Positions 7,200 through 64,000 of a stretch of DNA of 64,000 nt are shown here, piece after piece. A program made the translations under genes and the position numbers. The stretch's first letter is position 1. Each line of letters opens with the position of its first letter. The notes under the pieces are model-generated. The model was not told the origin of the DNA, ran no database searches, and was given only the letters and a program-made list of their open reading frames with translations. Source of the stretch: Escherichia phage T5; sequence record NC_005859.1; one strand, given 5' to 3'.

Positions 7200-7217
7200 T
7201 GTATTTGGGATATGTAA

Positions 7218-7540: not shown

Positions 7541-7553
7541 TTTATAAATGTAT

Positions 7554-7582: not shown

Positions 7583-7613
7583 ATTTATATAAATTAATGA
7601 GAGATATAAATAA

Positions 7614-8728: not shown

Positions 8729-8757
8729 TTGCTAAATGCTTAAATACTTGCTATAAT
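8729..8757 (+). promoter_or_regulatory. sigma70-type promoter between ligase halves
   Basis: -35 TTGCTA, 17-bp spacer, extended -10 TGcTATAAT. Confidence 0.55.
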
Positions 8758-8787
8758 ATTTATATAAATTGATAAGGAAGAAATTTG

Positions 8788-9567: not shown

Positions 9568-10327
9568 ACTGAACTGGAACGTAGAAGGTGTAACCGAGTC
9601 TCTGAAAGCAAAAGCCACTGCTCTGGGTGTTGATGTAATCTCTCAAGAACAAGTAGCTGCTATCGCTGCTGAACTGGCTGCTGAAACTGGCAAAGACGTT
9701 ACCGCTCGCTCTGTTGGCTCTAAGCTGCGTAAAGAAGGTTTCGAAGTACAGAAAGCTAACGAAGTACAGAAATCCCCGTGGACTCCTGAGCAGGAAGCTG
9801 AACTGGTTGATTTCCTGAACGCTCATGCTGGTCAGTATACTTATGCTGAAATCGCTGCTGCTGTAGCTGGTGGTCAATTTGGTGCTAAGCAGGTACAGGG
9901 TAAGATCCTGAGTCTGGAAATGACAGCATCTGTTAAGCCGACCGAAAAAGCTGCCGCTGTTCGTTCCTTCACTCCGGATGAAGAAACTGACTTTGTTAAT
10001 CAGGTTGTTGCTGGTGCTACTATTGAAGCTATCGCTGCTCACTTCGGTCGCAATATTAAGCAGATCCGTGGTAAAGCTCTGAGTCTGCTTCGTGAAGGTC
10101 GTATCGCGGCTATGCCGGTACAGGAAACTTCAAGTGCTAAAACTCGTGAAGATCTGCTAGAAGGTCTGGATCTGGTTAACATGACCGTTGCTGAGATCGC
10201 TGAGAAAACTGGTAAGTCTGAGCGTGGTGTTAAATCTATGCTGTCTCGTCGTGGTCTGGTTGCTAAGGACTATGATGGTGCCGCTAAGCGTGCTAAACTG
10301 GATGCAAAAGCTGCGGCTGCTGAATAA
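9560..10327 (+). CDS. hypothetical abundant protein with internal repeated HTH-like modules
   Basis: 255 aa; strongly optimised codon usage; repeated ~45-aa units (TPEQEAELVDF / TPDEETDFVNQ / MTVAEIAEKTGKSERGVKSML). Confidence 0.7.
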   Translation: MSKLNWNVEGVTESLKAKATALGVDVISQEQVAAIAAELAAETGKDVTARSVGSKLRKEGFEVQKANEVQKSPWTPEQEAELVDFLNAHAGQYTYAEIAAAVAGGQFGAKQVQGKILSLEMTASVKPTEKAAAVRSFTPDEETDFVNQVVAGATIEAIAAHFGRNIKQIRGKALSLLREGRIAAMPVQETSSAKTREDLLEGLDLVNMTVAEIAEKTGKSERGVKSMLSRRGLVAKDYDGAAKRAKLDAKAAAAE

Positions 10328-19060: not shown

Positions 19061-20038
19061 ATGAGAATATTATTTAGTGCTGATCATCATATCAAACTAG
19101 GACAAGATAAAGTTCCAAAGGAATGGCAGAAGCGTCGCTTCCTGATGCTAGGAGAACGGTTAAATGATATATTCCATAATCATAACTGTGATCTTCATAT
19201 TGCTGGTGGTGATATACTTGATGTTGCCGACCCGTCGTCAGAAGAAATAGAACTGCTTGAACAGTTCATGTCAAGACTTGACCATCCAGGCAAAATTTTT
19301 ACTGGAAATCATGAAATGTTAACTAAAACCATTTCGTGTCTGTATCATTACGCAGGGGTTATTAATAAAGTAACTAGTGGGAAGTGGGAAGTAATTACCA
19401 AACCATATCGTTCCCCTGAATTTGATATTGTTCCGTATGATGAGATCCATAAAGCTAAGTGGAAACCTCCGGTATCAAAACTATGTTTCACGCATGTTCG
19501 TGGTGAAATCCCTCCACATGTAAAACCAGAAATTGATCTAACTAAGTACAACTGTTATGATACTGTAATTGCTGGCGATTTACATTCTTATACTAATAGC
19601 CAGACTATCGGATCTACTAGACTCCTCTACCCAGGGTCTCCATTAACTACATCGTTCCATAGAGAACGCACAAAAGGTACAAATGGTTGCTTTATTATTG
19701 ATACCGACACATTAAAAGTAGAATGGATTGAACTAGGTGATTTACCACAACTGATTCGTAAAACAATCGGAGCAGGTGAAGAGATGGAACCTAGTGATTA
19801 TGATCGTGTAGTCTACGAAGTTACTGGTGACGTTGTTCAATTAAAGTCTATCAAAGACTCTGATTTATTAGATAAGAAGATTAACCATCGAGTTACTAAA
19901 GACGCTAAGTTAAATCTTGTTGATCTTGATATGTTAGGTGAACTTGAACTTTACTTCCGTGAAGTCGAGAAGCTATCTCAAGGCGACATTGATAGAATCT
20001 TGGCTAGAGCTGCGAAATATGTCAAAGATTACAATTAA
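19061..20038 (+). CDS. SbcD/Mre11-like metallophosphoesterase nuclease (T5 D12-like)
   Basis: 325 aa; N-terminal ILFSADHH and GGDILD calcineurin-like motifs. Confidence 0.8.
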   Translation: MRILFSADHHIKLGQDKVPKEWQKRRFLMLGERLNDIFHNHNCDLHIAGGDILDVADPSSEEIELLEQFMSRLDHPGKIFTGNHEMLTKTISCLYHYAGVINKVTSGKWEVITKPYRSPEFDIVPYDEIHKAKWKPPVSKLCFTHVRGEIPPHVKPEIDLTKYNCYDTVIAGDLHSYTNSQTIGSTRLLYPGSPLTTSFHRERTKGTNGCFIIDTDTLKVEWIELGDLPQLIRKTIGAGEEMEPSDYDRVVYEVTGDVVQLKSIKDSDLLDKKINHRVTKDAKLNLVDLDMLGELELYFREVEKLSQGDIDRILARAAKYVKDYN

Positions 20039-21857
20039 GACACTAAAATTTAGTAACGTTATGTCTTACGGTAAGGACATCGTAATTCATTTCGATAAGA
20101 ATCCAGTTACTCAACTAATTGGGGGCAATGGGCTAGGGAAATCCACCATCGCTACGGTTATCGAGGAGTTGTTTTATAACAAGAACTCTCGAGGTATCAA
20201 GAAGGATGCATTGTTCTCTTGGAATGCCCCTAAGAAAGAATACGATATGCACGCTTACTTCTCAAAAGATGAAGATGAGTATGAATTGCATAAAGTAGTT
20301 AAATCAACTGCTAAAGTTACACTCATTAAGAATGGAGAAGATATTAGTGGGCATACGGCAACCCAAACATATAAGATGATTGAAGAGATTATGGGTGGTG
20401 ACTTTCAAACATTCACCAAACTAATTTATCAATCAGTGGGTTCCAACCTAGATTTTCTAAAAGCAACGGATGCAACACGTAAGGCTTTTCTTGTTAACTT
20501 GTTCAATCAAGAGCAATACAAAGAAATGTCGGAAACTATTAAGGCTGACCGTAAAGAAATAGCAAATACCTTAAATAATTTGCAGGGCCAGATGGCTGTA
20601 ATTACGAAAATCCTTAATGGGAAAAATAATCTAGGAACTTTGCAGGAACCTGTAGAAGTACCGGAGTTTGATGAAGAGCCATTAGCACAAGAACTTACTG
20701 AATCGAAAATTAAGGCGGCATTAGCCAAGTCTCAAGAGGCTAATATTACTAAGTTGCGTAATTTGGACAAAGCTGTACAAGTTGCCGAACAATCTTTCGA
20801 ACCTTTCAAAAATTTGCCCGCGCCCACCGACCAAAATGAAGAGATCTCGAGTGTTACGCGTGACCTAACGATTGTGACCTCACGTGCGAGCGAAGTTAAG
20901 AAACGTTATCAGAAGTTCAAGCAAGAGGCTTCAAATACTGAATGTCCTACTTGCGGTACTCATCTGAATACAACTGCTGCTCAAAAAGCCATGGATATGG
21001 CTAGAGTAGAATATGATCCTCTGTTCAAAGAGAAGCAATCTCTTGAAGCTAAGCTAGAACAGTTGAAGAAAGAACAACTTGAGTACGTTGCGTATACTAG
21101 AGCAAAGGATGCTTTGGATAAAGCAGTGGTAGCTAGAGACGAGTTCAAAAATTCAATGAGTGATGCTTCTTTTGAAGAACTCAATGTGCAAATCCTACAG
21201 GTGCAAATCCGACAATTAGAGCAGGAAATCGCTGATGGCCGTTCTAAGGTTGCAATTGCCAAAGAGCATAATGCAACTGTCGAATTAGCCAATGCAAAAT
21301 ATAAAGCAAAGCTAGAACAGATTGAGAAAGCAGAAGCAGAAATGACTGAGATTACCTCCAAACTGGATGGAGTATCAGAAGCTGTTGCTGATCTCGATAT
21401 TCTAATTGCTGCATTGAAAAATCTGGTGGGGTATAAACTAGAGCATAGTGTGAAAGTATTTGAAGAGCTAATTAATAAATATCTTTCTATTATGACTGGC
21501 GGTAAATTCGCACTTGGATTTGAACTTGATGAAACAAAATTACAAGTAGTAATCTTCAATGATGGAAATCGTACCAGTATGGAGAACTGCTCTACTGGTC
21601 AGCAAAGTCGAATTAATCTAGCAACCCTGTTAGCTATTCGGATGCTGTTAACATCTATTAGTAAAGTTAATATTAATCTTCTATTCCTTGATGAAGTAAT
21701 TAGCTTTATTGATACGAAAGGACTTGATACTCTCGTTGAACTATTAAATGAGGAAGAAAGTCTAAATTCTATCATTGTTTCTCATGGGCATACGCATCCA
21801 TTAGCTCATAAGATTACTGTCAAAAAAGATGCAGAAGGATTTTCCTACTTAGAATAA
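20019..21857 (+). CDS. SbcC/Rad50-like ATPase (T5 D13-like)
   Basis: Walker A GGNGLGKST; long coiled-coil middle; signature/Walker B region LFLDEV; start set at internal ATG 20019 (track start 19938 overlaps D12 by 100 nt). Confidence 0.8.
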   Translation: MSKITIKTLKFSNVMSYGKDIVIHFDKNPVTQLIGGNGLGKSTIATVIEELFYNKNSRGIKKDALFSWNAPKKEYDMHAYFSKDEDEYELHKVVKSTAKVTLIKNGEDISGHTATQTYKMIEEIMGGDFQTFTKLIYQSVGSNLDFLKATDATRKAFLVNLFNQEQYKEMSETIKADRKEIANTLNNLQGQMAVITKILNGKNNLGTLQEPVEVPEFDEEPLAQELTESKIKAALAKSQEANITKLRNLDKAVQVAEQSFEPFKNLPAPTDQNEEISSVTRDLTIVTSRASEVKKRYQKFKQEASNTECPTCGTHLNTTAAQKAMDMARVEYDPLFKEKQSLEAKLEQLKKEQLEYVAYTRAKDALDKAVVARDEFKNSMSDASFEELNVQILQVQIRQLEQEIADGRSKVAIAKEHNATVELANAKYKAKLEQIEKAEAEMTEITSKLDGVSEAVADLDILIAALKNLVGYKLEHSVKVFEELINKYLSIMTGGKFALGFELDETKLQVVIFNDGNRTSMENCSTGQQSRINLATLLAIRMLLTSISKVNINLLFLDEVISFIDTKGLDTLVELLNEEESLNSIIVSHGHTHPLAHKITVKKDAEGFSYLE

Positions 21858-50676: not shown

Positions 50677-52599
50677 TTAGGTAAGGCGTTGAATTATAAG
50701 TTTAATATTAGGTAAGCATGCTTTCATGCCAATTATATTACTCATGGAAGAATCTAACCAAATAGAGATATTATTATTTCCATCATTTCTCATATAGTAA
50801 GTTAGAGTATAGTATCCTGTTTGCCCAACAGATCCAGGCAACCCAGATACCCAATATGGTGTTGGATTATACGCAGCAGCCTGCAATTTACAAGCGTTTA
50901 CAACTGTACCTTTTATAGTAAAGAATGGAACGTATTCTCCGGCTGGTAGAGATAGTATTTGATGCAGTTTTTTATTTATGGTATTCCCCCCTATCCTAAA
51001 TCTACTATCACCGTATTCTGCCCCTTGGGATAACATTTCTGTAGGATTGAAGCAACCAATACCGCCTGCGGATAGCCATGTATCATCTATAAACTCCATA
51101 GTACATACAATAGCACCATTTCTACTGCTATTAAGATCTAACCCCACAGTACCAACATGTACAGATCCATTACCCTGGAATACTATGTTTCCAGATAATA
51201 TAGTGCTACCACTACCTCCCAGGAGTCTTAATGGTAATAAATTCTCACTCCAAACGTCGCCATAGTTATTACCTATTTTTGGTGGATTACTAGATACATA
51301 CCAAGATGCTGAAGGTAAAAAATTATAAATACTAACAACATTAGCATGTAAGCCACCAACATTACCACCTTTAATACTAGGAGCATTATTGCTCTCTGTG
51401 GTTGGTAGCCCAAATGTTGCTATACCTGATATTCCTGTTGAGGGAGAATCTTTACTTAGATTACAACCAACATCACGAAAATCAGCTCTGTTACCAACGT
51501 TGAAATTTTTCTCTATAAAATTAATAAATTTCCAAGATGTATTATTAACATTAACCCCTTTAATAATAAATTCTCTTGGGCTGAGCTTAATGTCATTACC
51601 GTTAAATAACCCACCGTCTATATTATACCCAGAACCATTGTATACTAGGTTAGTAACATACCATGTAATTTTAGATGGATAAATGCCTAAATGTTCGCTG
51701 TAGATACCTATAGGTCCATTGGCAGAATCATTAGGATCTCCCATACTTTCCCAGTAAGCATAGTTAGTAGGATCAGCACGTGCGAAACCTACGGAATACT
51801 TTGGTGATTCTGGATTACTGGGGTTATACGTAAAGTTAAGGGCTCCAGAGCTCGAAGCTCCCTGCACAGCCCCACCGGTAGTATAGTTTGGTCCTTCCAT
51901 ACCATAAAGAACCCTATTACAAGACCTACCACGAACGTATATAGCATTAAAACCAAAGTTCCTAGCTCCTGGGTGTCTAACATAATCACTAGGGATAGTT
52001 AAGGTTCCTGCATCAGCCACCACATAACCGGAACCACTCCACGCAGATTTGTAAAGAGCAGCACCACCTAAGTACATTGCACTTGATGCAAACCCCCTTC
52101 TCCCACTAAAAGCACCGAACATATGTTGACATCCTGTGCCATCTCTTAACTTTTGTGGTATAGTGCCACTAGTACCCGTATTAAAATAACCTACATCAAG
52201 TGAAAGATCGGCACTAGCTGTTATTTGTGTTTTTAATCCACCCTGAGACATAATCTGAGGATTTATAATACCATAGGCTTTTGCACCTACTCCCATAGAC
52301 ATGCCAGATAGCATATGTCTAGAGCCATCAGAAAACTCAATCTCTGTTAATACAACTCTATTAGGGTCATTATTATGTAGCTGTGTAACTCTACTAGGCA
52401 TTTCAGACCAGTAATAGTCACCAGCCCCCTGATCCAATCTTAATCCAGTAGAATGAGTTTCCGTTATAATTACGTGCGACATATCTGAATGAAAGATGGT
52501 TTGGGAATCAGGGTTGATATGTTGGTTAGTATCTCCACCACTACCCCTTCGCAGTGAGAGTATAGATTTGTTATTTAGCTTGCCAGCGAAAAAACTCAT
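50677..52599 (-). CDS. oad: receptor-binding tail protein (pb5-like, FhuA-binding)
   Basis: 640 aa, same length as T5 pb5; Gly/Asn-rich beta protein; adjacent to llp. Confidence 0.75.
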
Positions 52600-52912: not shown

Positions 52913-53075
52913 GTAAAAACCACCTTAGTAACCATCACCACTTAAGATGAACCTAGTGCAGAATTAGTTCAGGATACCACACAAGACACTATGGAAGGTG
53001 TGATGGGAATATTTACACTAATCACTGCAATTGCTAGAGTATTTTAAATACCACACTTATAGGAGCATGAAAGAT

Positions 53076-53204
53076 ATGTCAAACAAAAGAAAGAGCAGAC
53101 GTGGAGAAGTGTACGATAGCTGGATTAATAGCTTTGGATTAGGAACTATTTTATTCTTTATTTTCGTAGGTTTTTGGTTAGCAGCTATGGCGGGGTGGAT
53201 TTAA
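53076..53204 (+). CDS. small membrane protein (42 aa)
   Basis: hand-translated; RBS aggag 10 nt upstream; basic N-terminus then hydrophobic helix; not in ORF track (<60 aa). Confidence 0.45.
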   Translation: MSNKRKSRRGEVYDSWINSFGLGTILFFIFVGFWLAAMAGWI

Positions 53205-53311
53205 TGGAATGGGTAATTATTGCGTTGCTAGGGGTTGTGATTATTGGACAATGTATTTTAGATAATCACTTAGCTAGAATTGAAACTTTATTAACGGAGA
53301 AGCGTAAATGA
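53204..53311 (+). CDS. small membrane protein (35 aa)
   Basis: hand-translated MEWVIIALLGVVIIGQ...; ATG overlaps upstream stop (TAATG). Confidence 0.4.
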   Translation: MEWVIIALLGVVIIGQCILDNHLARIETLLTEKRK

Positions 53312-53502
53312 TGGAAGTAGTAGCTATAATAACAGTAATACTAGTCTGGGCAATTTTCATTGCTTCTTGCACCGTGTACGTTCGCCTAAAAACTCTAGAA
53401 GCTCAAGTAAAACAACAACAATTTGCTATAGAAAAATTAGTAGAACTCCAACGTTGTGATAGCATTCGTATTCTGCAAATTGAGAGGGAATTAGATGTTT
53501 AG
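53308..53502 (+). CDS. small membrane protein (64 aa)
   Basis: N-terminal transmembrane helix then coiled region; start overlaps upstream stop. Confidence 0.5.
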   Translation: MMEVVAIITVILVWAIFIASCTVYVRLKTLEAQVKQQQFAIEKLVELQRCDSIRILQIERELDV

Positions 53503-53740
53503 CATTATAGTTGCTTTTATTATCGGAATAATCGCGGGAGTTTTCGGAATGACTGCGGCTATTAACAAGCATCGTAAATACATTGCGGAAGTATCGCGGG
53601 AGATTGCGGAAAGGGAGCGGAAGTTTGACGAAAAACGTGCGGAGTTTGAGCGGGAGTGGTCGGACGGTTCTCGGGCGTCGCGGAAGAGATTCCGTGAGTT
53701 CAGACCAAAATACGGAGTTGATGACCATTCTATGCGCTAA
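53495..53740 (+). CDS. small membrane protein (81 aa)
   Basis: N-terminal transmembrane helix then charged ER-rich tail; start overlaps upstream stop. Confidence 0.5.
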   Translation: MFSIIVAFIIGIIAGVFGMTAAINKHRKYIAEVSREIAERERKFDEKRAEFEREWSDGSRASRKRFREFRPKYGVDDHSMR

Positions 53741-53850
53741 TTGGGAAATCTCGAAATTTCATAAGATTACACATGAAGGTGTGTCCACTGCCTCCGGCGA
53801 AAATACTTAGTCTGCTAACCGCCACCCCCGTTACTATTACCATGCTAACT

Positions 53851-53887
53851 GTTTCACCCTGCAACCATTTTAATTGCAGGGTGAAAC
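53851..53887. other. perfect 14-bp-stem hairpin at late / pre-early junction
   Basis: gtttcaccctgcaa - ccattttaa - ttgcagggtgaaac; no adjacent U-tract. Confidence 0.6.
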
Positions 53888-53904
53888 AATTTCAACTTTA
53901 ATTA

Positions 53905-54639
53905 TTACGCAACTTTTAATTTCTCAATATATTGTTGCGGGCTGCAACTATATTCTGCGCGTTCTTCTTCGGTCATACCTTCCCAACATAATTGCAGGCG
54001 GTCGGCTAGGAACTGATAATCATTATCATCCTCAAGAGATTCATCAATAAAGGTTTCACCTATCAATGTCACGCCGATTGATAGAATATCATTAACGGCT
54101 TGTGCGTCCAGCGTTTTAAATCCGTATGACGCTGCCGCTGATAGCACGCCTTTATGATCATCAATCATTGTAAAATCAGCGTTCGGATATAATTGTTTGA
54201 ATAGCCCAAAATAGTAACTTTTATAAACTGCGTCTTTGCTGTGGTATATCTCGCTAACTTTATCAGCCTCAAAATATTTGTGTAGTGTATCGCGGGAAAA
54301 TACACGGATATTACTATCACCACGACCGCGCAACCCTTGTTTACGCAAATAATAATAGTCCGACTTGCTCATTAGTCGAGCGGTGCAAATAATGTTTAAA
54401 GTATTTGCGTCATTCATGCACTGGCGCATATATGTAACAAGGGGCAATAGTGTATCTTGCATTATTAAATCATGTTTGCAGGCTTCATTTTTATACTTAT
54501 TTAAATCTAAATTGCCCTCGCTATCAAAGCAAGGCGCTACACGATGAAACGAATTAATGATAGTGCCGTCCAGATCCCAAATCATGACGCGGGAAATATG
54601 CGGGAAATTACGGGTAATATTCGTTTTAACTTGATTCAT
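53905..54639 (-). CDS. dmp: 5'-deoxyribonucleotidase (HAD family), Dmp-like
   Basis: 244 aa; HAD motif I IWDLDGT; terminal-repeat-like position next to A1. Confidence 0.75.
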   Translation of the reverse strand: MNQVKTNITRNFPHISRVMIWDLDGTIINSFHRVAPCFDSEGNLDLNKYKNEACKHDLIMQDTLLPLVTYMRQCMNDANTLNIICTARLMSKSDYYYLRKQGLRGRGDSNIRVFSRDTLHKYFEADKVSEIYHSKDAVYKSYYFGLFKQLYPNADFTMIDDHKGVLSAAASYGFKTLDAQAVNDILSIGVTLIGETFIDESLEDDNDYQFLADRLQLCWEGMTEEERAEYSCSPQQYIEKLKVA

Positions 54640-54719
54640 TTTGTTACGTTCTCCATTTGAGGGATTAGATTAATTCAGCATTACCCGCTATTAAATAGCG
54701 GGTAATAATAAATTAACTA

Positions 54720-55115
54720 TTAAAGGCCATACGCTAGCGCATCAGCGATAAAACTAACATCCTCGCCCGATACGCTGGAACGAATGCCAGCGCATGTATA
54801 CACCTTTGCGCTCATTAGCTGATCATCAAGGCAAGCGGGGCAAGGTGCGACTACTGCGAAAGCTAAACCGGATTTTACCGCGTCAATAATGATTGTTTCC
54901 TGTTTCATAGTGTCAACATAAACACCTTTTGCTTTAATATGGCTTGTTAGTTTGCCCTGCATATATGCAAACGTTGTAACTTGCATCGCGTCATTGAAAT
55001 CTAATAGCTCATCAATAACGTGACCGGCCTCGACGTGATAACGCTGACCATTAGAATAAACCAGAACAATAGAAGACTGAGCGCGATCGAATGGGATACG
55101 GTTAGATTTAGCCAT
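54720..55115 (-). CDS. hypothetical pre-early protein
   Basis: 131-aa ORF between dmp and A1. Confidence 0.55.
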   Translation of the reverse strand: MAKSNRIPFDRAQSSIVLVYSNGQRYHVEAGHVIDELLDFNDAMQVTTFAYMQGKLTSHIKAKGVYVDTMKQETIIIDAVKSGLAFAVVAPCPACLDDQLMSAKVYTCAGIRSSVSGEDVSFIADALAYGL

Positions 55116-55151
55116 GTTTATAACTCCAATTAGTTTAATAAGGGATTTAAT

Positions 55152-55430
55152 TTATTTGCTAGCTTCAAGACTTACAACAAAAGCGAGATTTGTTTCTTTC
55201 CATACGTCAGGAATATCATTTTCCTGTAAATGGTCTTTCGCTTCATACTCATTTTCAAAAGAATAAAAATCGCCGGACTCAATTATATAAATATGCCCGT
55301 TTAGTTCATTTTGATAAATATAACAATTATTATCTTTTAAATTGCGGTATACAGTACCATGCCGTAAAACATCAAGCGACCATGTATCAGCGGTGTTTTT
55401 CATGCTGGGAAGATTAATTTTAATAGCCAT
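55152..55430 (-). CDS. hypothetical pre-early protein
   Basis: 92-aa ORF. Confidence 0.5.
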   Translation of the reverse strand: MAIKINLPSMKNTADTWSLDVLRHGTVYRNLKDNNCYIYQNELNGHIYIIESGDFYSFENEYEAKDHLQENDIPDVWKETNLAFVVSLEASK

Positions 55431-55486
55431 TTAATTTAGCTCCTGTAATAGCGGCTATATCTCAAGCCGCTAGGGGAATAATTTAA

Positions 55487-57157
55487 TTACGCAAAGAATT
55501 TACCATTCTTAAAGTCAATCAAAGTGCGTTGACCGTTTGCATAGGTAATAATATGCGTTTGAGTCCAGCTAGACGCGCCAACGTTGTAACCCATGTCCAG
55601 ACTACCAGTCACGCCAGCGGTATAAACGCCGCCGTAAATGCTGGCGGTGTGGGTGTGTCCGGTGTTTAATTTGCCCAATTTCTTAAACTGTTTCGGGTTG
55701 CCACGGCTCCCGTTAATGCCGTTGTGACCGTGTACGCCGCATTCAATGCCTGCAATCTTGAAAGATTGGTCAGTGGTCAGGAAAATGGCGTTAAATTCAC
55801 AGCCTGCAACCTTGCGCAGCGCATAATCAAGCACGTTAAAAGTATCGTCTTTTTCTGCAATAGCTCCATAAATCGCAGCATTCAGGCGGTGATATAGTTC
55901 CGCGTTTGCTGGGTCGTCTTTAATGTTAGCATTACGATCATCTAACCAGCGGGATAGCGCCAGATCATGATTAGATTCAACAATGATTGTTTGAGAAAAA
56001 TCACGCTCCATTGATTCCAGTACGCGCCCCGTATCGATAAGATCATCTAATACCTTATCACGTCCGGCGGCATATTGTTTCGCTAGGAATACGCCAGATG
56101 CGCGGTTGTGATGGTTGCGTGATGTAAAATCATGCACGTCGTGTACAAACTGATATTTTGGTTTAAGAATATCAACAAGCCCGTAGGTGTCACCATGCCC
56201 CCAAGACGCAGCGGCGCACTCCTCATCTAATTTTTCAGCGTGAATGTCGCCATATTGTAAACCTAAAACGTGCCCCGTTGTTTCATAACATCCGGCAGGA
56301 GTGGCGCAAGTATTCAAATCATAAAACACGCCGCTCTCGTCCATCGTTTCAAGCTGGCGCACAAAAAACTCACCGTCCTCGTCAAACTCAACAATAAGCG
56401 CACCGAAGTTATGCAGCGCCTCGGCCTTTTGTCCTGCTTTCTGCTGGATGTAATTTTTTAGCGTTGCCGTTCCGGTTGAATACATACGGCGCACAATTTC
56501 ACCTTTTAAAGCTGGCACGCTTTCGGCGGTGATTTTAGCCGCTCCAATTGCTAGACCTTCAAGATTCAGCGCGGTTGCAGTTTCAGCGAATCCAGAAAGC
56601 GGATAATCTGCGGTGGGTAAAACGTTAATTTCAGCCATGAAAGCAAATCGGCGATTATTTAAAAACACGTTTTTATTGCAGATATATTTGTCAAATGCGG
56701 AATCGTATCTGATACCGTCGGCGCCCTCGCCATTTTGAAAACCGTTTTTGTTATAGATAAACTTGCTAACCAGCAAATCAGCGCCGATAAATTGGGCGTA
56801 TTGTTCAAGTGAGGCTAAAAAGTTTTTATGCGGGAACGTATTATTCTGAATCGATGTAATAATAAAGCGTTTACCTTGTTTTACTTCCCATTGCTCAACC
56901 GTGCTAGAAACAATCCCCGCCGCTTCTGGGCGCTCATCGTTTTTAATGGCTTTTGCTACTTTCGCCGCTTTCGGTTTCGCTGGTTTATTTGCTTCCAGCC
57001 AGTCACAAATTGCGGTAGAGTGTTTTGTTGTATCGTAAACCATTTTTGAAATATCGTCGCAAACTTCCAATTTAGTAGCGCGCAGACGTTTACCGTAGAA
57101 ATTAAAGTCAGCGGCCATTTTCAGGATAACGGTTTGTTTTTCTGCGGAAATAACCAT
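55487..57157 (-). CDS. A1: A1-like pre-early protein with metallophosphoesterase domain
   Basis: 556 aa, same length as T5 A1; calcineurin-like motifs GDIH, GDTYG, ESNHD, GHNG, HTHT in C-terminal half. Confidence 0.75.
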   Translation of the reverse strand: MVISAEKQTVILKMAADFNFYGKRLRATKLEVCDDISKMVYDTTKHSTAICDWLEANKPAKPKAAKVAKAIKNDERPEAAGIVSSTVEQWEVKQGKRFIITSIQNNTFPHKNFLASLEQYAQFIGADLLVSKFIYNKNGFQNGEGADGIRYDSAFDKYICNKNVFLNNRRFAFMAEINVLPTADYPLSGFAETATALNLEGLAIGAAKITAESVPALKGEIVRRMYSTGTATLKNYIQQKAGQKAEALHNFGALIVEFDEDGEFFVRQLETMDESGVFYDLNTCATPAGCYETTGHVLGLQYGDIHAEKLDEECAAASWGHGDTYGLVDILKPKYQFVHDVHDFTSRNHHNRASGVFLAKQYAAGRDKVLDDLIDTGRVLESMERDFSQTIIVESNHDLALSRWLDDRNANIKDDPANAELYHRLNAAIYGAIAEKDDTFNVLDYALRKVAGCEFNAIFLTTDQSFKIAGIECGVHGHNGINGSRGNPKQFKKLGKLNTGHTHTASIYGGVYTAGVTGSLDMGYNVGASSWTQTHIITYANGQRTLIDFKNGKFFA

Positions 57158-57253
57158 AATAATAAAACTCCATTAAAGGGATTAAAAAACGTTTGTTATT
57201 GGCAATATTGCCAAATATAACGCCTTGAATAATAGGCGTTATAATTTGCAACA

Positions 57254-57451
57254 TTAATTTAAAGGCATAAGGCTAGAACTAACACCACAAGCAACGGCGG
57301 CAATAAAACAAATCAGACCTAAACGCTTTGCTAACTTAGATTTACGTTTAAAATAATACGAATCTAAATCATTTTGAAAATAAGCGAACAATAACGAGGC
57401 CGCCATAATAAACAAGCCTAGAATGAGGGATTCAGTAGGGTAAAAGATCAT
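57254..57451 (-). CDS. small membrane protein
   Basis: 65 aa with two hydrophobic helices. Confidence 0.45.
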   Translation of the reverse strand: MIFYPTESLILGLFIMAASLLFAYFQNDLDSYYFKRKSKLAKRLGLICFIAAVACGVSSSLMPLN

Positions 57452-57507
57452 TTTAAAACTCCAGTCAAAGGGAAATTATAGTGGGGAATATTCCCCACTA
57501 ATTAAAT

Positions 57508-57915
57508 TTATTCGCCTGCGGCTTGTTTTACTTCATCGGCAACGCCTAACAGTTGCGCCACGGCGTCCAGCGTTTCCAATTTTGCACTTTCCAGTGATGC
57601 CAGATCGTCAGCGTCTTTGATAATACCGGAATCGATGGCATGTTTTGCAATCACACGCACGTAGTGCGCTTTGCGGATAGAACTGCCGCCGCCAACCTTG
57701 CGAGGTTTATCGCTTTTCTGATACGCTTTCGCGCTGGTCAATTTTGAGCGAACAGACACGGGAGAAGCCGCGCCAACTGCTTTTGCAATCTCTTTTAAAC
57801 CGTCGCTATTTGCGAAATCTAAACCGTTTTCATTAATTAACTGCTGGTACATGGAAACAGCTTTCTGAGTGTTTTCTTCATTCCAAGCGAATTTTGCGGT
57901 TTTAGCGTTAGTCAT
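57508..57915 (-). CDS. A2: A2-like pre-early DNA-binding protein
   Basis: 135-aa ORF immediately after A1 in transcription order; size and position match T5 A2. Confidence 0.65.
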   Translation of the reverse strand: MTNAKTAKFAWNEENTQKAVSMYQQLINENGLDFANSDGLKEIAKAVGAASPVSVRSKLTSAKAYQKSDKPRKVGGGSSIRKAHYVRVIAKHAIDSGIIKDADDLASLESAKLETLDAVAQLLGVADEVKQAAGE

Positions 57916-58010
57916 GATGTAACTCCTGTTTATTTAATTTAAGGGATAAGATTAACATAATGTTAATCGTTATATCCCCCGAACTACTGGGGGATATAAA
58001 AGTAACACTA

Positions 58011-58262
58011 TTACGCTACGGCTTCCCATTTTTCGTTACGCTGGGCAACCTTTACAACGTCGCCGGATTTAACCCGAACGTTGTAAACAGTTTTTCCGTT
58101 GTTACTCCGTTCCGTTTCAGCGTATACCGCATCAATTACATCAAACGGCATAAGCGCCGCGCCTTTAATGCGTTCGGTTTTTCCGGTTACCTCATCCGTT
58201 TTAGTAACGAAAGGGATAAAAACGGATTGACCAATTTTTGGCGCAGTAGTAACGTTTTGCAT
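58011..58262 (-). CDS. hypothetical protein
   Basis: 83-aa ORF; GC-richer codon usage like the A1/A2 block. Confidence 0.5.
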   Translation of the reverse strand: MQNVTTAPKIGQSVFIPFVTKTDEVTGKTERIKGAALMPFDVIDAVYAETERSNNGKTVYNVRVKSGDVVKVAQRNEKWEAVA

Positions 58263-58495
58263 AATATAAACTCCAGTTTATTAAGGGGGATTGTTCCGCA
58301 TTACCTGCTGTAAAAGTAGTGGCAGGTAATAAGCAACAATCCGCTCGCCAATATAATCAATTTAAAGAACTCCACTCAGGCCGCTATATCCCAGTTAGGG
58401 GGCGGGACACATTATGGTAAGTGCCGACCGTCATATTTTATCAAGTTATCGCTCTCATCGAACTGGGTACATCTTAAAGCCTATCGGCTAGGGTG

Positions 58496-58699
58496 TCAAA
58501 CTATTTTTTGCAGTTTTTTATGATTTTCTTTCAAGTCAATCATAATGTTTCGCCAGATCATTTCCAGACCTTGCTGGCGGCCTTTCTTGTACTGCCTAAA
58601 TCGATATTTTACCGATTGCTGGGCTATTGTCAACAATTTTTTAGTAGTACCATCTAATTTTTTAGCTGGTTTACCAGTGATCAATAAAGTTTGTTTCAT
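58496..58699 (-). CDS. hypothetical basic small protein
   Basis: 67-aa Lys/Arg-rich ORF in an otherwise non-coding stretch. Confidence 0.3.
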   Translation of the reverse strand: MKQTLLITGKPAKKLDGTTKKLLTIAQQSVKYRFRQYKKGRQQGLEMIWRNIMIDLKENHKKLQKIV

Positions 58700-59191
58700 A
58701 TCGTCGATTCCTTATAATATATAAGTTTACCGCCGATAGACTTTAAGATGTACCCAATTTTTAAAGAGCGTGGCGGTAAACTTCCCGCCGTGTAGTTCGT
58801 CATTGCCGCCCTACGAGATAAATAATAGGGGATACCCAAAAATGGCGCAACCTTATTTTTGTAAAGAAACGTAAAGAAGGCAACACGTCCGGCGCTCACC
58901 TAAGTTTAAAGGAAACGGGCGCGCGAATACCATAAAACCTAGCAGGTTGGCAAGTAATTTTTTCCTTTATATTTGCCTTGCCCTAGTTGACAAATCTTAG
59001 AAAGCTCGTGGTGACGATAAACGGGTTATCCCCTTATGATGGGATGCCTGAAAAATTTACCGCGTCAGAAAGCGTTTTAGGCGGCTTATTTTCGATTTAA
59101 CAAATATTTAACAAAAGCAAAATTGAAAAATAGTTGGAAAAGATATTGACTTTTAAAAATCAAGACTAAACGAGTTATTTTATAAAATTAA

Positions 59192-59710
59192 TTAATTGAC
59201 AATTCCAAATTCAGCTTTTTTAGTTTCTACCCATAATAATAACTCTTGTAAATCATAACCTGATTTACTAACACTTTTGTTACTAGTAGGATCTTTAACT
59301 ATAGCGCGCAAATAGTTTCTTCCGTTATTATCAACTCTAGAACCATTATAATAGATATGCTTAGGCAACTTATTAGCACGCTTATAATCTTTCTTGTTAT
59401 TCATATTCTGCTTATGGTCTACTAAGCGAAGATTATTAATGTTATTATTAGCACGGTTACGATCATTATGATCGATTGTTAGATTGCTATCAATCTCACC
59501 ATTAAATAATACCCATATTATTCTATGCACTGCGTATTGTTCGCCTGCTAACTTTACTCGATAGTAACCTGTGTTACTATAATGCCCTGCAATATCACCC
59601 ACCTTACTATTACCTTTCTGTACTTTCCATCTTAGAAATGATGGGGATGTTTCATCATAATAAAAGTTATCATTAGCAAGCGAATAATCTATATCTTTAA
59701 ATAGACCCAT
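59192..59710 (-). CDS. HNH homing endonuclease with AP2-like domain
   Basis: 172 aa; AVHRIIW...IDHNDRNRANNNINNLR...HKQN HNH motif; third member of the family at 4556 and 11864. Confidence 0.7.
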   Translation of the reverse strand: MGLFKDIDYSLANDNFYYDETSPSFLRWKVQKGNSKVGDIAGHYSNTGYYRVKLAGEQYAVHRIIWVLFNGEIDSNLTIDHNDRNRANNNINNLRLVDHKQNMNNKKDYKRANKLPKHIYYNGSRVDNNGRNYLRAIVKDPTSNKSVSKSGYDLQELLLWVETKKAEFGIVN

Positions 59711-59876
59711 TGTTATAGTTTCCTTATGTTATTAATTTAATCTCTATTATATTATATCAAAACCATTAGCAAACTACCTAATGAGTTTTTCAGGTTTAAT
59801 TAGCAGACTCATAATCACTTTAAAATCCTATTAGCCAACTAACTATATTTTGTTATATAATAACTGCATAAATTAG

Positions 59877-60010
59877 TTAGTGAGAAACACTATCATTTAA
59901 GTTATCCACAGCCTTATACATTTTGTAAATTAACTTGACACAATAGGAAGGCTTTATAGCACTTTTACACAGACTTATCCACAGGTTATTCCACTGTATA
60001 AATATACAGG
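59877..60010. repeat. left arm of ~130-bp imperfect inverted repeat, with DnaA boxes and 16-bp palindrome
   Basis: TTATCCACA at 59903-59911 and 59975-59983; palindrome ctgtataaatatacag 59994-60009; reverse complement aligns by eye with 63192-63320. Confidence 0.65.
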
Positions 60011-60275
60011 GTAAATGGAAAACATATTATAATGATGCCCAAAATAAGCGGCCTAAAACGCTTTCTAACGAGCAAAACGCTATAGGGTAATATTAAAGTA
60101 AAGCCTCAACGCGTCGCCCTGGTGGCTTCGCCGTGTTTTGCTCTTTACTATACCGCTGCGCGGTTAGCATAAAACTAGGCGCTAGGCAAGGAAAATAAAA
60201 AGGTAAAATAATATTTGCCTATGCTAGAAAATTACCTTTATCATTCACTCACCGATTAACGAGGGAGGCCAACAA

Positions 60276-61286
60276 ATGCGGCTATATAAACCAGATAACG
60301 CAACCGTCTTAAAGGGCGCCTTGCGCAACCTGCTGGATGGTAGCAGGACAACCAGCATTAAACATTTTATTAACAAGGCTGAAACTATTCACCAAAACTT
60401 TTTTAATGATTATGATGCCTATGATATGGATAGTTTTCTACCCCTATATAAGCAGGGGGCAACGATTATCTTATATAATCGTGATTGCCATATCTTTACG
60501 GGCAGGGGAGCGGGGCCGGATACTGATTTTATTGTTGCGCAGGGTAATAATATCGTTGCGTATCATAGCAATTCAGGCCGTCAATCATTTAATATAAATA
60601 ATTTTGAGCTTGTTGGGCTTGAATTAATAAACGGACTTTCTAGCCTTGAGGGATTTTTAGATGTTATCTGGAAGTATTTATCTGCTGGATGGCATAGACC
60701 TGATAGTGATGGATCTCAATATACGGCTGTAATGGCTTTTGATGGCGACGGTAATTTTTTATTACCATCGGAATTATATCCGTATGTATATAATGAGCTA
60801 GTACAAGAAGCGGGTTTTATTTTCTGGAAAGATGAGAATCAGATCATTGACAACACGGAAAAACATGCTGTAAATTCTAACACTCAAAGCGTTAACACTC
60901 AAATCACTGAAAACAAAGGAAAAAATGCCATGACCAAGATCGCTAATATCGTTGCCGCTAATAAATCCGCCGTTGTAAATGCTGCAAAACTGGAAGCGGG
61001 CAAAATTGCATTAACTCAAATCACGAAAGTAGCGGCTAAAAAAGCACCATTTATGATTAAAGGTTATATTGATACGCCTATTGGTCGGGTAGTTATTGCT
61101 AACCTGCTGAGCGTAGCGGTTGACCAGTACGCCCCTAGCAACCAAAAGGCGAAAGCGGTAGCGGGTGCAGCTATGGAAGCGGCTATGCTAGAAATGGTGC
61201 AAAGTTTTAACATCGCTGAAATGATTGATGAAATGGTGAAAGGTATTGATATTTCTACTTTTACCGTTAACACCGAAAGCGAGTAA
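60276..61286 (+). CDS. hypothetical protein (336 aa), first gene of inverted-repeat-bounded cassette
   Basis: RBS gagggagg; mixed alpha/beta N-terminal domain, Ala-rich helical C-terminus. Confidence 0.65.
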   Translation: MRLYKPDNATVLKGALRNLLDGSRTTSIKHFINKAETIHQNFFNDYDAYDMDSFLPLYKQGATIILYNRDCHIFTGRGAGPDTDFIVAQGNNIVAYHSNSGRQSFNINNFELVGLELINGLSSLEGFLDVIWKYLSAGWHRPDSDGSQYTAVMAFDGDGNFLLPSELYPYVYNELVQEAGFIFWKDENQIIDNTEKHAVNSNTQSVNTQITENKGKNAMTKIANIVAANKSAVVNAAKLEAGKIALTQITKVAAKKAPFMIKGYIDTPIGRVVIANLLSVAVDQYAPSNQKAKAVAGAAMEAAMLEMVQSFNIAEMIDEMVKGIDISTFTVNTESE

Positions 61287-61314
61287 TAATTAACCTAATG
61301 TAAAGTTTTGTAAA

Positions 61315-61340
61315 GGTCGCCATAATCGGCGGCCTTTTTT
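61315..61340 (+). terminator. possible terminator/attenuator
   Basis: short GC stem (tcgcc/ggcgg) followed by CCTTTTTTG. Confidence 0.35.
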
Positions 61341-61404
61341 GTTATAATGCCTTTACACCGTTTGAGGACGGTTGAAAATTTTCCCAAAATTTTGGAGGCT
61401 TAAA

Positions 61405-61635
61405 ATGGTTGCTTATTCTTCTTCTGACGCTCTTTTCACTGGAAAAGGCTGGGTATCAAATCGCTGGATCATTCAAGAAATGGTGCAGGAGTTCGGCATT
61501 GCTAAAACTTACACTACCATTCAGGCGCTTTATGATAATGATCAAATCGATCAGCAAACGGCGGGCTTTTTGCTGGATACCCTGAAAGCGGAACACTGTA
61601 CTAAAAAACAAGCCGCCAAAATTGTTTTAATGTAA
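61405..61635 (+). CDS. hypothetical protein
   Basis: 76 aa from ATG with RBS ggagg 6 nt upstream (track start 61372 is TTG). Confidence 0.55.
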   Translation: MVAYSSSDALFTGKGWVSNRWIIQEMVQEFGIAKTYTTIQALYDNDQIDQQTAGFLLDTLKAEHCTKKQAAKIVLM

Positions 61636-61684
61636 TTAATAACGGGGCGTTACTTTCGCCCCACTAACTAGGGGAGTATTACAA

Positions 61685-61849
61685 ATGGTTATTTTTCGAG
61701 CTATTCTGGCAGGTATCTTGGGCGCTATTCTGACCCTTTTTGCTACCGCTTACGGTATTCAAGATTCTTATTGTGGTTTAGTAAATACTAAACCTATGGT
61801 TATTATTGGCGCGGGTATCGCTGTATTTTCTTATCTGCTGGGCTGCATG
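61685..61849 (+). CDS. small membrane protein (54 aa)
   Basis: hand-translated MVIFRAILAGILGAILTLFATAYG...; RBS gggag; not in ORF track. Confidence 0.35.
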
Positions 61850-61866
61850 AATAAAGGAGAATAAAA

Positions 61867-62079
61867 ATGATCCGCAACGTTTCTCTTGCTCGTTCAAAGG
61901 GTTTTAAGCTGGTGGATGTTAACACATTCGAGCGGGAAGATTGTAAAATCGAATATGTAGCACGTAATAAAAACGCCTTTCGTGTTACAGAAAAGAAATT
62001 TGATAAGCGCGGCAACGTGATAGCTGAAACGGTTAAACATTTTGCCACCTTTTACGCGGCTTTTCGTGGAGTGTTATAA
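61867..62079 (+). CDS. hypothetical protein
   Basis: 70-aa ORF, RBS aaaggaga. Confidence 0.55.
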   Translation: MIRNVSLARSKGFKLVDVNTFEREDCKIEYVARNKNAFRVTEKKFDKRGNVIAETVKHFATFYAAFRGVL

Positions 62080-62080
62080 A

Positions 62081-62425
62081 ATGGTAATTTATGAAGGCAA
62101 TCGCTTTGTTGCTATTTGCCGACCGGGATTATTAGCAAACTACTTAAATCAGGTGTCACCTGAATATAAAGGCGTCATTAATATTTATGAGGGCAAGGCG
62201 CATTATAAGATTAATGCGGTCGTTGCCCGTGAATTAGCATTTCAATTTTTGACTTTCGCATCTTGTGATATTCAGGTCATGGGTGAAGCGTTAATTGCAG
62301 AAAATGAAGATGATTTTATTAATATCTTCCGCAAGGTATACACCGAGCGCCTGATAATGAAAGGCGCATATATTCAGTCAACTGCGGAAAGTATTGAAAC
62401 AGCTTTCAGAAAGGTGGCGCAATGA
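62081..62425 (+). CDS. hypothetical protein
   Basis: 114 aa from ATG 62081 (RBS ggag), 1 nt after upstream stop. Confidence 0.55.
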   Translation: MVIYEGNRFVAICRPGLLANYLNQVSPEYKGVINIYEGKAHYKINAVVARELAFQFLTFASCDIQVMGEALIAENEDDFINIFRKVYTERLIMKGAYIQSTAESIETAFRKVAQ

Positions 62426-62440
62426 AGCTATATATTTTCG

Positions 62441-62719
62441 TTGGTAATGTTGAGGCTGCGAATGATTCCGCTGGTGGCGATAACGTTCGCCACTATTGGC
62501 AAAAATATATTTACTAGGGTTATTATGATTACACTGATTTGCGTTAAAGCCGAAGGCGACACGATAGCGCGAGAAGGGCAAAAATATAAAGCCCAAAAAG
62601 ATCAATTACTCAAAACAATTGAGCGTTACAAAATACCCGATCTCAAGTATTCCGTAGTAGGACGCGATGGGATTCTAAGGGCGACACTTGAGAACGCTAT
62701 CTTTGAGATAGTCAACTAA
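62441..62719 (+). CDS. hypothetical protein (start uncertain)
   Basis: track ORF begins with TTG; internal ATG at 62525 would give 64 aa. Confidence 0.35.
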   Translation: MVMLRLRMIPLVAITFATIGKNIFTRVIMITLICVKAEGDTIAREGQKYKAQKDQLLKTIERYKIPDLKYSVVGRDGILRATLENAIFEIVN

Positions 62720-62734
62720 TAACGGGGCGTTATT

Positions 62735-62938
62735 ATGAGCAATAAAATTATTGTGACCAAAACTACCACAATGGTAGACGTTTTTTATGTGCCCGATACG
62801 CCGGAGAATCGGGGAGCGGTCGAGCGGGGCGAGTATGATAGCGTTATTTATGATGCCGATGGTTATTATCAGCATTTGGTCGATTCCTACGGGGAAGAGG
62901 AGAAGATCACGCATCGATTACCCGAGGGGGATTTATGA
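62735..62938 (+). CDS. hypothetical acidic small protein
   Basis: 67-aa ORF. Confidence 0.5.
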   Translation: MSNKIIVTKTTTMVDVFYVPDTPENRGAVERGEYDSVIYDADGYYQHLVDSYGEEEKITHRLPEGDL

Positions 62939-63048
62939 AACGATGGTTTAATCACTGGTATAAACGGTTTTTAGTACGGCATCGCAAGTCTAGACAGCAA
63001 GATGATTGGCGGGAAATGGCAAAGCGTAACAATTGCCCACTTCTCTGA
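62935..63048 (+). CDS. small basic protein (37 aa)
   Basis: hand-translated MKRWFNHWYKRFLVRHRKSRQQDDWREMAKRNNCPLL; ATGA overlap with upstream stop; followed by terminator. Confidence 0.35.
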   Translation: MKRWFNHWYKRFLVRHRKSRQQDDWREMAKRNNCPLL

Positions 63049-63055
63049 TAACCGA

Positions 63056-63077
63056 CGGGGATCAGCTCCCCGTTTTT
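63056..63077 (+). terminator. rho-independent terminator closing the plus-strand cassette
   Basis: cgggga-tcagc-tccccg hairpin followed by TTTTT. Confidence 0.7.
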
Positions 63078-63191
63078 CACGCCTCCAGTTAAATCCCCCT
63101 TTGTTTTAGTATCCCCATCAAAATTAAACGCGTTAGAATGCGATCTAGGACGTTTTAGGCATATATTAGAATTATTCACTGCGTAGGAATA

Positions 63192-63320
63192 CTGTATAAA
63201 TATACAGTAGGATAACCTGGGGATAAGTCTGTTGATAACGCTTCAAAATGGCTAGGATTTTGTCAAGGCGAATCGTGCTGTTGATAAGTCTGTGGATAAC
63301 TTAAATAACAGTGTTTCTCA
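63192..63320. repeat. right arm of inverted repeat, with DnaA-box cluster and 16-bp palindrome
   Basis: palindrome ctgtataaatatacag 63192-63207; DnaA-box-like 9-mers (rc TTATCCACA at 63291-63299; variants at 63209-63239 and 63279-63287); tail cttaaataacagtgtttctcac mirrors the left arm. Confidence 0.65.
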
Positions 63321-63323
63321 CTT

Positions 63324-63480
63324 CCGTTTTTAAATACGAATCATTATCATTCGTATTCCGCTTTTTAAATGAGAATCATTCCGCTTTTTAAATGAGAATC
63401 ATTTCACTTCCTGAATAGTTCTCATTCCCTTTCTTAAATGAGAATCATTATCATTTGCATTTCACTTTTTAAATGAGATT
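63324..63480. repeat. array of ~22-bp direct repeats (CCGCTTTTTAAATGAGAATCATT)
   Basis: two perfect tandem copies 63358-63403 plus three degenerate copies; each holds the small dyad AATGA-n3-TCATT. Confidence 0.75.
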
Positions 63481-63509
63481 GATTCTCATTATCATTCGCA
63501 TTCAGGCGA

Positions 63510-63527
63510 GCAGGGCAATTGCCCTGC
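63510..63527. other. perfect 18-bp palindrome
   Basis: gcagggcaattgccctgc followed by gcttttg. Confidence 0.7.
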
Positions 63528-63533
63528 GCTTTT

Positions 63534-63756
63534 GTGCAAATCCGACATTTGCCCCCATGGATTACGCGTGGGCGTGTATGTGCAAATCCGACAATTTTTG
63601 GTAGTGTGCGAATCCGACCCGAAAAATTTTTATAGTGTGCAAATCCGACAATGAATTTTCCCAAAAACTCCAGCAATCACGAACTGCGTTCGAATCCTGT
63701 GGAATTAGCTAGAGTATGTGCAAATCCGACATGTGTTGAGATGTGCGAATCCGACA
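63534..63756. repeat. iteron-like array: six copies of 14-bp GTGC(A/G)AATCCGAC(A/C)
   Basis: copies at 63534, 63580, 63606, 63646, 63718, 63743 with irregular 25-72 bp spacing, all same orientation, non-coding. Confidence 0.8.
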
Positions 63757-63892
63757 AGATTTTTGTGACTTCGATGGGAGGGTGTGTGATTGTATGGGTT
63801 TGAGGGGAAGATGAGAGAGCGAGAGAAATTTGGGAGGCTAGAAGGATATGGGCGCAGGATTGGTGCGGAGCACCTGATTTGCGGGGATTTTG

Positions 63893-63936
63893 GGGAAGAG
63901 TTGAGATAATTTGGGAAGATTTGAGATAGGTGCAGA
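63893..63936. repeat. purine-rich tandem repeat (TTTGGGGAAGAGTTGAGATA-like, 2 copies)
   Basis: within a strongly G+A-skewed plus-strand tract 63770-63940. Confidence 0.5.
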
Positions 63937-64000
63937 AAAAGTAAAATTTTATTAGCTAAAGGGGGCAAAATAGCTTGACAAGTGAAAATTTCTGTGGCTC

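Follow-up and report, generated by a model that had tools for sequence, protein, structure and literature searches.

Gene content of the pre-early block

The stretch of DNA analysed here (hereafter the window) comprises 64,000 nucleotides (nt) of Escherichia phage T5 (sequence record NC_005859.1), numbered from its first letter, and carries at positions 53905-57915 a minus-strand block of six open reading frames (ORFs), dmp-002-003-A1-005-A2, the longest of which encodes the A1 protein that is the main subject of this analysis. A preliminary description of the block, made from the letters alone, had listed six minus-strand ORFs of 244, 131, 92, 556, 65 and 135 amino acids (aa) and had assigned three of them to Dmp, A1 and A2. 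All six were recovered as listed by an ORF scan, and the three names proved exact, since the block (4011 nt) is 100% identical to Escherichia phage T5 records AY692264 and AY587007 (megablast; database of 50,697 phage records); the whole block was matched in 469 phage records. The labels of the six ORFs in AY692264 and AY587007 are dmp, ORF002, ORF003, A1, a 65-aa ORF and A2, and the gene order within the terminal repeat is that of the T5 annotation. The features of the locus are as follows (GC3, GC content at third codon positions; record counts by tblastn).

53782..64000, no strand: right terminal repeat (RTR), a copy of the left-end first-step-transfer DNA; the block lies wholly inside it
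53905..54639, minus strand: dmp, deoxynucleoside-5'-monophosphatase (244 aa); 100% identical to T5 dmp; phrog_415, E 3.6e-57
54720..55115, minus strand: ORF 002 (131 aa), conserved; phrog_4576; 437 phage records
55152..55430, minus strand: ORF 003 (92 aa), occupant of a variable slot; 31 phage records; GC3 0.26
55487-57157, minus strand: A1 (556 aa); 100% identical to T5
55490..56272, minus strand: A1 residues ~296-556, canonical metallophosphoesterase (MPE) domain with the full metal-ligand set, presumed catalytic deoxyribonuclease (DNase) domain
56273..56893, minus strand: A1 residues ~89-295, predicted second MPE fold without the canonical Asp/His ligands
56894..57157, minus strand: A1 residues 1-88, with a helical domain at the N-terminus (1-60) and after it a flexible linker rich in Lys/Ala/Pro
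57254..57451, minus strand: ORF 005 (65 aa), two predicted transmembrane segments; phrog_4820 "membrane protein"; 451 phage records
57508..57915, minus strand: A2 (135 aa), which binds DNA and is essential for second-step transfer; 100% identical to T5; phrog_1725 "DNA binding protein"
58011..58262, minus strand: ORF 007 (83 aa, DUF7177), next gene upstream in the operon; Pfam PF23801, E 4.4e-43
58471..58633, minus strand: two strong sigma-70 promoter-like sites driving the operon, inside the pre-early promoters annotated as T5P1 and T5P2

By blastn, window positions 53782 to ~63997 correspond to positions 1-10136 of AY587007, and the DNA upstream of 53782 is without a match. Because the repeat match reaches the last bases of the window, the window covers the final 64 kb of T5, and because the left-end match begins at 53782, the block represents the pre-early region in its right-terminal-repeat copy. 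It is the copy at the left end, with the same sequence, that is injected in first-step transfer.

A GGAG Shine-Dalgarno sequence precedes the ATG of each of the six ORFs and of 007. The two promoter-like sites upstream read TTGACA-17-TAAGAT (58499-58471) and TTGACA-16-TAAAAT (58633-58606), and the promoters annotated in AY587007 at 4663-4737 and 4795-4880 correspond to window positions 58444-58518 and 58576-58661. The block is the RTR copy of the T5 pre-early operon, which runs from these promoters through (hdi)-007-A2-005-A1-003-002-dmp to a terminal hairpin. In Vibrio phage D17 (L008:2408-5329), a distant T5-like phage with an A1 identity of 35%, the A2-, A1- and dmp-like genes follow one another directly with no small ORFs between them, so that the conserved core of the operon is A2-A1-dmp.

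Domain architecture and distribution of A1

A1 is predicted to consist of three parts, namely a variable N-terminal DNA-binding domain, a ligand-less MPE fold and a C-terminal canonical dinuclear metallophosphoesterase domain. In the model, the N-terminal domain has helices at residues 5-17, 26-41 and 47-56, and the predicted local distance difference test (pLDDT) score falls below 50 over residues 62-85. A GcrA-like DNA-binding domain at residues 1-60 and, by HHpred, a C-terminal nuclease domain had previously been predicted by Stokar-Avihail et al. (bioRxiv 10.1101/2022.08.27.505566), who also reported A1 mutations that escape retron-Ec67 (A15T, C33R, I36T, S47P and V214M).

The preliminary description had placed a full calcineurin-like MPE motif set in the C-terminal half of A1, and the set is indeed present there as G303-D304-x-H306, H339-D340-x-x-D343, S395-N396-H397-D398, H476/H478 and G500-H501-x-H503. 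The six-motif signature of calcineurin-like metallophosphoesterases is D-x-H, G-D-x-x-D, G-N-H-[DE], H, G-H and G-H-x-H; A1 has His for Gly in HD340xxD343 and Ser for Gly in SN396H397D398. Among 32 aligned homologues (lowest identity 43%), G303-D304-x-H306, H339-D340-x-x-D343, S395-N396-H397, H476 and G500-H501-x-H503 are invariant, and D304, H306, D340, N396, H397, H476, H501 and H503 were found in 121/121 sequences (A1 plus 120 cluster representatives, minimum 42% identity). The ligands are also kept at 29-39% identity in four further, mutually unrelated groups, namely in Autographiviridae, 308-kb Caulobacter, Flavobacterium podovirus and Vibrio T5-like phages. Homologues lacking the metal-binding residues, which the preliminary description had named as evidence against its view of A1, were found neither among the 121 sequences nor among those at 29-39% identity.

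Residues 296-556 are predicted to form a beta-alpha-beta-alpha-beta sandwich. The best match of this predicted C-terminal structure was the proofreading exonuclease subunit DP1 of archaeal PolD (14.1; 218 residues aligned), followed by MJ0936 (12.9), Vps29 (12.7), YfcE (12.6), LpxH (12.3), the Pol delta B-subunit (11.4), SbcD (11.4) and Mre11 (11.3).

Residues 89-295 of the model likewise adopt an MPE fold. This middle domain has invariant residues of its own (Q104, T107, Y135, N235, Y236, H249 and R267), some of them within Q104-N-N-T107..H110 after strand 1 and Y135-N-K-N-G-F-Q-N after strand 2, with N178-x-L-P-T after strand 3; a D-x-H or G-D motif occurs within residues 89-295 in 0/121 homologues. 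Comparison of the middle-domain and C-terminal-domain profiles with hhalign gave no signal of an internal duplication (E 0.28, 12 columns at the last hairpin), and the tandem-MPE idea therefore rests on predicted structure. Whether the conserved A1 core is a tandem of MPE folds, the first ligand-less with its own invariant polar residues and the second catalytic, and whether this tandem is the conserved unit of a broad family of phage nucleases, we hold to be evenly balanced between yes and no. If the tandem is real, A1 would be a built-in pseudo-dimer, and we infer for its ligand-less domain a candidate role in substrate binding or in discrimination between host and phage DNA. The tandem-MPE architecture is not described in the literature examined and would be a modest increment to it; together with the wide spread of the core, it could aid construct design and mutagenesis.

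By tblastn, 1133 phage records contain an A1 homologue; in 603 the identity is <60%, and many are outside T5-like phages. The conserved unit spans residues ~93-556, and the N-terminal domain is variable, being absent in some relatives or replaced by Pfam helix-turn-helix (HTH) domains. Homologues over this unit at 29-46% identity outside T5-like phages (L004:8001-9623; L005:2968-4425; L006:2785-4572; L007:2770-4359) belong to a 153-kb contig with T4-type baseplate genes, Autographiviridae (Agrobacterium), a 308-kb Caulobacter phage and Flavobacterium podoviruses. In Agrobacterium phage Atu_ph02 the homologue has primase/helicase genes on one side and polymerase genes on the other; in Caulobacter phage CcrPW (L006:1992-6439) it lies between two DNA methyltransferase genes and adjoins a DNA polymerase gene, and in the 153-kb contig it adjoins a primase-like gene and a ClpP gene. 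Neither A2 nor dmp was found near the homologue in any of these three or in the Flavobacterium podoviruses, where replication genes are likewise its neighbours. Given this replication-gene setting without A2 or dmp, we suggest that the ancestral and general role of the A1 family is DNA degradation rather than DNA transfer. The label "DNA transfer protein", carried by many records of the family, would then be a misnomer, and annotation pipelines would be mislabelling the family. The broad distribution of the A1 core is a modest addition to the literature examined. As a separate observation, the methyltransferase genes flanking the CcrPW homologue could hint at methylation-based self-protection from an A1-like nuclease.

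Roles of the operon products

How T5 destroys the host chromosome so rapidly and why it injects its DNA in two steps are classic problems, and A1 is central to both. We consider it highly probable that this pre-early operon encodes a metal-dependent DNase (A1), a phosphatase of deoxynucleoside monophosphates (dNMPs) (Dmp) and a transfer partner (A2). After entry of the left-end copy in first-step transfer, the genes are transcribed by unmodified host RNA polymerase. Most probably, A1 hydrolyses DNA phosphodiester bonds through its C-terminal domain and the host chromosome is thereby degraded, after which Dmp, as a HAD-type phosphatase, would strip the 5'-phosphate from the released dNMPs. A2 is a DNA-binding partner of A1, with A1 and A2 both needed for DNA transfer to resume, and ORFs 002, 003 and 005 are accessory, with no required role under laboratory conditions.

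Published in vivo work carries the functional side of this proposal. In vivo, A1 is both required and enough for the degradation of host DNA (10.64898/2026.04.02.716235); expression of A1 alone led to degradation of the E. coli chromosome, with rRNA spared, in two strains and with no other phage protein, and host DNA was not degraded by an A1 amber mutant (Annor et al.). A1 as a predicted metallophosphatase or nuclease is thus already in the literature and under test, and the suggestion of the preliminary description that an MPE-type nuclease would fit host DNA degradation agrees with the motifs, the predicted fold and this published work. From the same evidence we infer that A1 is itself the DNase and that its catalysis is metal-dependent.

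The case for Dmp is built on motifs. The HAD signature comprises DxDx[TV], S/T, K/R and DD or [DE]D, and in Dmp the motifs D22-L-D24-G-T26, T86, K140 and D160-D161 occur in canonical order and do not vary across 22 homologues (lowest identity 43%), in keeping with the HAD-family label that Dmp had been given at the outset. The substrate of Dmp is free dNMP. That phrog_415 is labelled "polynucleotide kinase" is presumably due to the HAD-type phosphatase domain that such enzymes carry. For A2, a search of the PDB gave no relative, and scans of Pfam, NCBIfam and PADLOC were also empty.

Several results weigh against these assignments. Scans of A1 against Pfam, NCBIfam and PADLOC returned no domain (Pfam and NCBIfam at E <= 0.1, including Metallophos PF00149 and Metallophos_2), phmmer with A1 and the 32-homologue profile against the PDB gave chance matches and no MPE, and a Foldseek comparison of the full A1 model with PDB entries found nothing significant, the best hit (E 0.05) being an MPE. 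The profile searches for a phosphoesterase domain that the preliminary description had proposed as a check, run against Pfam, NCBIfam and the PDB, thus did not detect one, and since no sequence method does so, the MPE assignment rests on the motif pattern and the predicted structure. No report of nuclease activity of purified A1 was found in the literature examined, which also holds no explanation of how unmodified T5 DNA escapes A1; the protein co-purifies with RNA polymerase and has been described as too toxic to express. For Dmp, the local Pfam and NCBIfam scans and the PADLOC scan gave no match and phmmer against the PDB gave nothing, and its profile had only weak HAD matches in the PDB, covering motif I only (E 0.09-0.28), so that a HAD fold of Dmp is a prediction from its motifs.

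The small ORFs had been put forward as candidate additional takeover factors, for which we find no support. In published work 002, 003 and 005 are non-toxic, and their deletions are viable and leave host DNA degradation unaffected. Annor et al. found dmp, A1, hdi, hegG, 011, 013 and 015 to be toxic and 002, 003, 005, 007 and A2 to be non-toxic among the pre-early genes, obtained viable deletions with no effect on host DNA degradation for 002, 005, 007 and the dmp-002-003 block, and showed that a phage retaining only A1, A2, hdi and 009 still grows; the dispensability of 002 and 005 is known from single deletions and that of 003 from the block deletion (Annor et al.). Most of the experiments on these ORFs that the preliminary description had suggested are therefore already in print, and under laboratory conditions their outcome was negative.

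The check on conservation of these ORFs gave a divided answer: 002 (437 records) and 005 (451) are conserved, and 003 (31 records, versus ~440-470 for its neighbours) is not. The count for 003 agrees with its published occurrence of <15%. ORF 003 occupies a variable slot, the 002/A1 gap (window 55116-55486), which in most relatives holds an unrelated 85-aa ORF (L002:1371-1628; 183 records) that does not align with ORF 003 at E <= 100; at least one phage, KookSpook, carries 003 and the 85-aa ORF in tandem.

It is unlikely, though somewhat less so than the other alternatives weighed here, that 002, 003 and 005 are host-takeover or anti-defence factors that matter only in hosts with particular defence systems. 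The conservation of 002 and 005 in ~440-450 phage records would fit such a role, as would the 003 slot, which has two or more unrelated alleles, as is common among accessory or anti-defence genes, and conditional essentiality was flagged as untested by the authors of the deletion study. Against it stand the absence of toxicity, the viability of the deletions with virulence unchanged where dmp was kept, and the absence of matches in Pfam, NCBIfam, PADLOC or the PDB.

For ORF 002, a search of 1.84 billion representatives returned its own family (two close clusters) and weak fasciclin-repeat matches in two giant secreted proteins. Residues ~20-116 align with the fasciclin repeats of a 1215-aa secreted protein (P0165) at 28% identity (E 3.6e-8 summed over six repeats); this likeness is unverified, the Pfam Fasciclin model giving no match to 002, and a weak match to the PARP1 zinc finger (E 0.068) was dismissed as chance.

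The word "membrane" attached to the 65-aa ORF in the preliminary description is reasonable, as the hydropathy profile of ORF 005 has two hydrophobic segments (residues ~7-24 and ~43-60) with a KRKSKLAKR basic loop between them. Tethering of A1 to the membrane by ORF 005 is conceivable because A1 itself has no hydrophobic segment (maximum 19-residue hydropathy 0.99) yet is membrane-associated according to older work; the mild phenotype of the ORF 005 deletion argues against an essential tethering role.

For A1, an indirect action must also be weighed, and Annor et al. did not exclude an indirect mechanism. A1 would then not be a DNase itself: its phosphoesterase would have a different substrate, such as a phosphate on a protein, a nucleotide or a cyclic-nucleotide signal, or else a host nuclease would be activated or unleashed by A1. 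We regard this as improbable, as A1 alone degrades the chromosome in two E. coli strains without any other phage protein, its N-terminal domain is of a DNA-binding type, its top structural match is a DNA exonuclease, and its homologues in other phages belong to DNA-replication modules, with primase/helicase genes to one side and polymerase genes to the other.

MPE nucleases are directed by structure or by ends and are not known to be sequence-specific, and this counts against the least probable reading, in which A1 is a site-specific, restriction-like endonuclease that cuts host sites absent from the first-step-transfer DNA, leaves host exonucleases to finish, and together with A2 cleaves phage DNA to release the injection block: the catalytic fold is predicted as MPE, and the N-terminal domain, which could give sequence specificity, is the least conserved part of the protein, absent or replaced in many homologues, whereas the core of two folds is invariant. 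This hypothesis of Davison, proposed in 10.1101/866236 with no experimental support there, would explain the survival of unmodified T5 DNA. A metal-dependent DNase acting directly on the chromosome is the reading of A1 that we retain.

Hairpins, codon usage and comparison with known systems

Stable hairpins lie in most gaps of the operon, and for the five that were folded (all but 58288-58342) the RNA fold z-scores range from -3.8 to -8.1.

53847..53891, minus strand: strong hairpin just downstream of dmp, at the operon end; 18-nt inverted repeat, 94% complementary; -30.8 kcal/mol, z -8.1
54670..54716, minus strand: 002/dmp intercistronic hairpin, T5 "palindrome A"; -25.1 kcal/mol, z -7.4; annotated in T5
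57204..57255, minus strand: 005/A1 intercistronic hairpin; -23.5 kcal/mol, z -5.6; overlaps a 48-aa ORF at 57108-57254
57479..57500, minus strand: A2/005 intercistronic hairpin, T5 "palindrome B"; -15.2 kcal/mol, z -3.8; annotated in T5
57970-57999 and 58288-58342: further hairpins, in the A2/007 gap and upstream of 007

The terminator annotated in AY587007 at 69-105 (putative rho-independent in T5) corresponds to window positions 53850-53886. No U-run follows the 53847-53891 hairpin on the minus strand, nor was one found on the coding strand after the operon hairpins, and an Rfam scan of window positions 53000-60500 returned nothing real. Candidate roles for the hairpins are mRNA processing, stability or attenuation.

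GC-richer codons than in the late genes had been noted for the block, and in aggregate this holds: the seven pre-early ORFs have a GC3 of 0.402, as against 0.300 for a set of 20 late ORFs (Mann-Whitney p = 0.004) and 0.323 for one of 16 early ORFs; 003 (0.26, the lowest of the block) and 005 (0.32) are exceptions. In the pre-early region (53905-58262) 3.4% of codons are classical rare E. coli codons, versus 8.1% in the late region (24115-52599; p = 0.0007) and 6.0% in the early ORFs; AGA, AGG and ATA occur 1, 0 and 4 times in 1306 pre-early codons and 120, 51 and 172 times in 8974 late codons. A plausible reason for this avoidance is that the pre-early genes are translated before the rest of the genome, including the T5 tRNA genes, enters the cell. 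The tRNA genes lie outside the first-step-transfer DNA, and none was found in the 64-kb window.

Just upstream of the repeat are two genes, one for the receptor-binding protein (640 aa, 50677-52599) and one for a small lipoprotein. The 48-aa ORF at 57108-57254 was rejected as a gene, for it lacks a Shine-Dalgarno sequence and runs across the true start of A1; it is probably spurious. In AY587007 this ORF is labelled ORF005, A1 is given as 527 aa and the 65-aa membrane ORF is called "A1 protein precursor", which look like annotation artefacts. At window positions ~59384-59445 there are also ~75 nt extra relative to AY587007, near left-repeat position 5603; they sit in a 172-aa HNH-endonuclease-like ORF (59192-59710) that is intact here, and AY587007 has two small ORFs in its place.

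The closest comparison is T5 itself: the pre-early operon of NC_005859, AY692264 and AY587007 is the same locus, with identical sequence, gene order, promoters and palindromes, and ranks among the most familiar loci of phage biology. The window copy does not differ in sequence from the left-end copy, and differs from it in being the right-terminal-repeat copy, not the first injected. Phage polynucleotide kinase (phrog_415) shares the HAD phosphatase motifs with Dmp, which lacks a kinase domain.

The preliminary description had also called A1 Mre11-like, of which the likeness in fold stands; membership of the Mre11 family is not supported, as the capping domain, the Rad50/SbcC partner and a Pfam Metallophos match are all absent. 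Mre11 and SbcD have a capping domain after the nuclease domain, whereas in A1 the model extends eight residues past the last core strand (544-548), to residue 556, with no capping or other C-terminal domain, and no gene for a Rad50/SbcC-type ATPase was found at 53905-58262. T5 does have a genuine SbcD-like/SbcC-like pair in its early region (window 19061-21857). Its SbcD-like protein (19061-20038) matches Pfam Metallophos at 29.2 bits (cut-off 21.5), is followed by the gene of an SbcC-like SMC/AAA ATPase (639 aa, 19938-21857) and has no sequence similarity to A1.

Neither DP1 of archaeal PolD (PDB 5ihe), a 3'-5' proofreading exonuclease, nor the B-subunits of eukaryotic polymerases show detectable sequence similarity to A1. 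In DP1 an oligonucleotide/oligosaccharide-binding (OB) fold precedes the phosphodiesterase domain, whereas the domain preceding the catalytic one in A1 is predicted as an MPE fold, not OB; DP1 also pairs with a polymerase catalytic subunit, whereas T5 A1 has no polymerase partner and no adjacent polymerase gene. DenA and DenB of T4 and gp3 and gp6 of T7 have folds unrelated to that of A1, with no sequence homology reported, but serve the same role, the early destruction of the host chromosome, and T5 excretes the products of DNA breakdown instead of recycling them.

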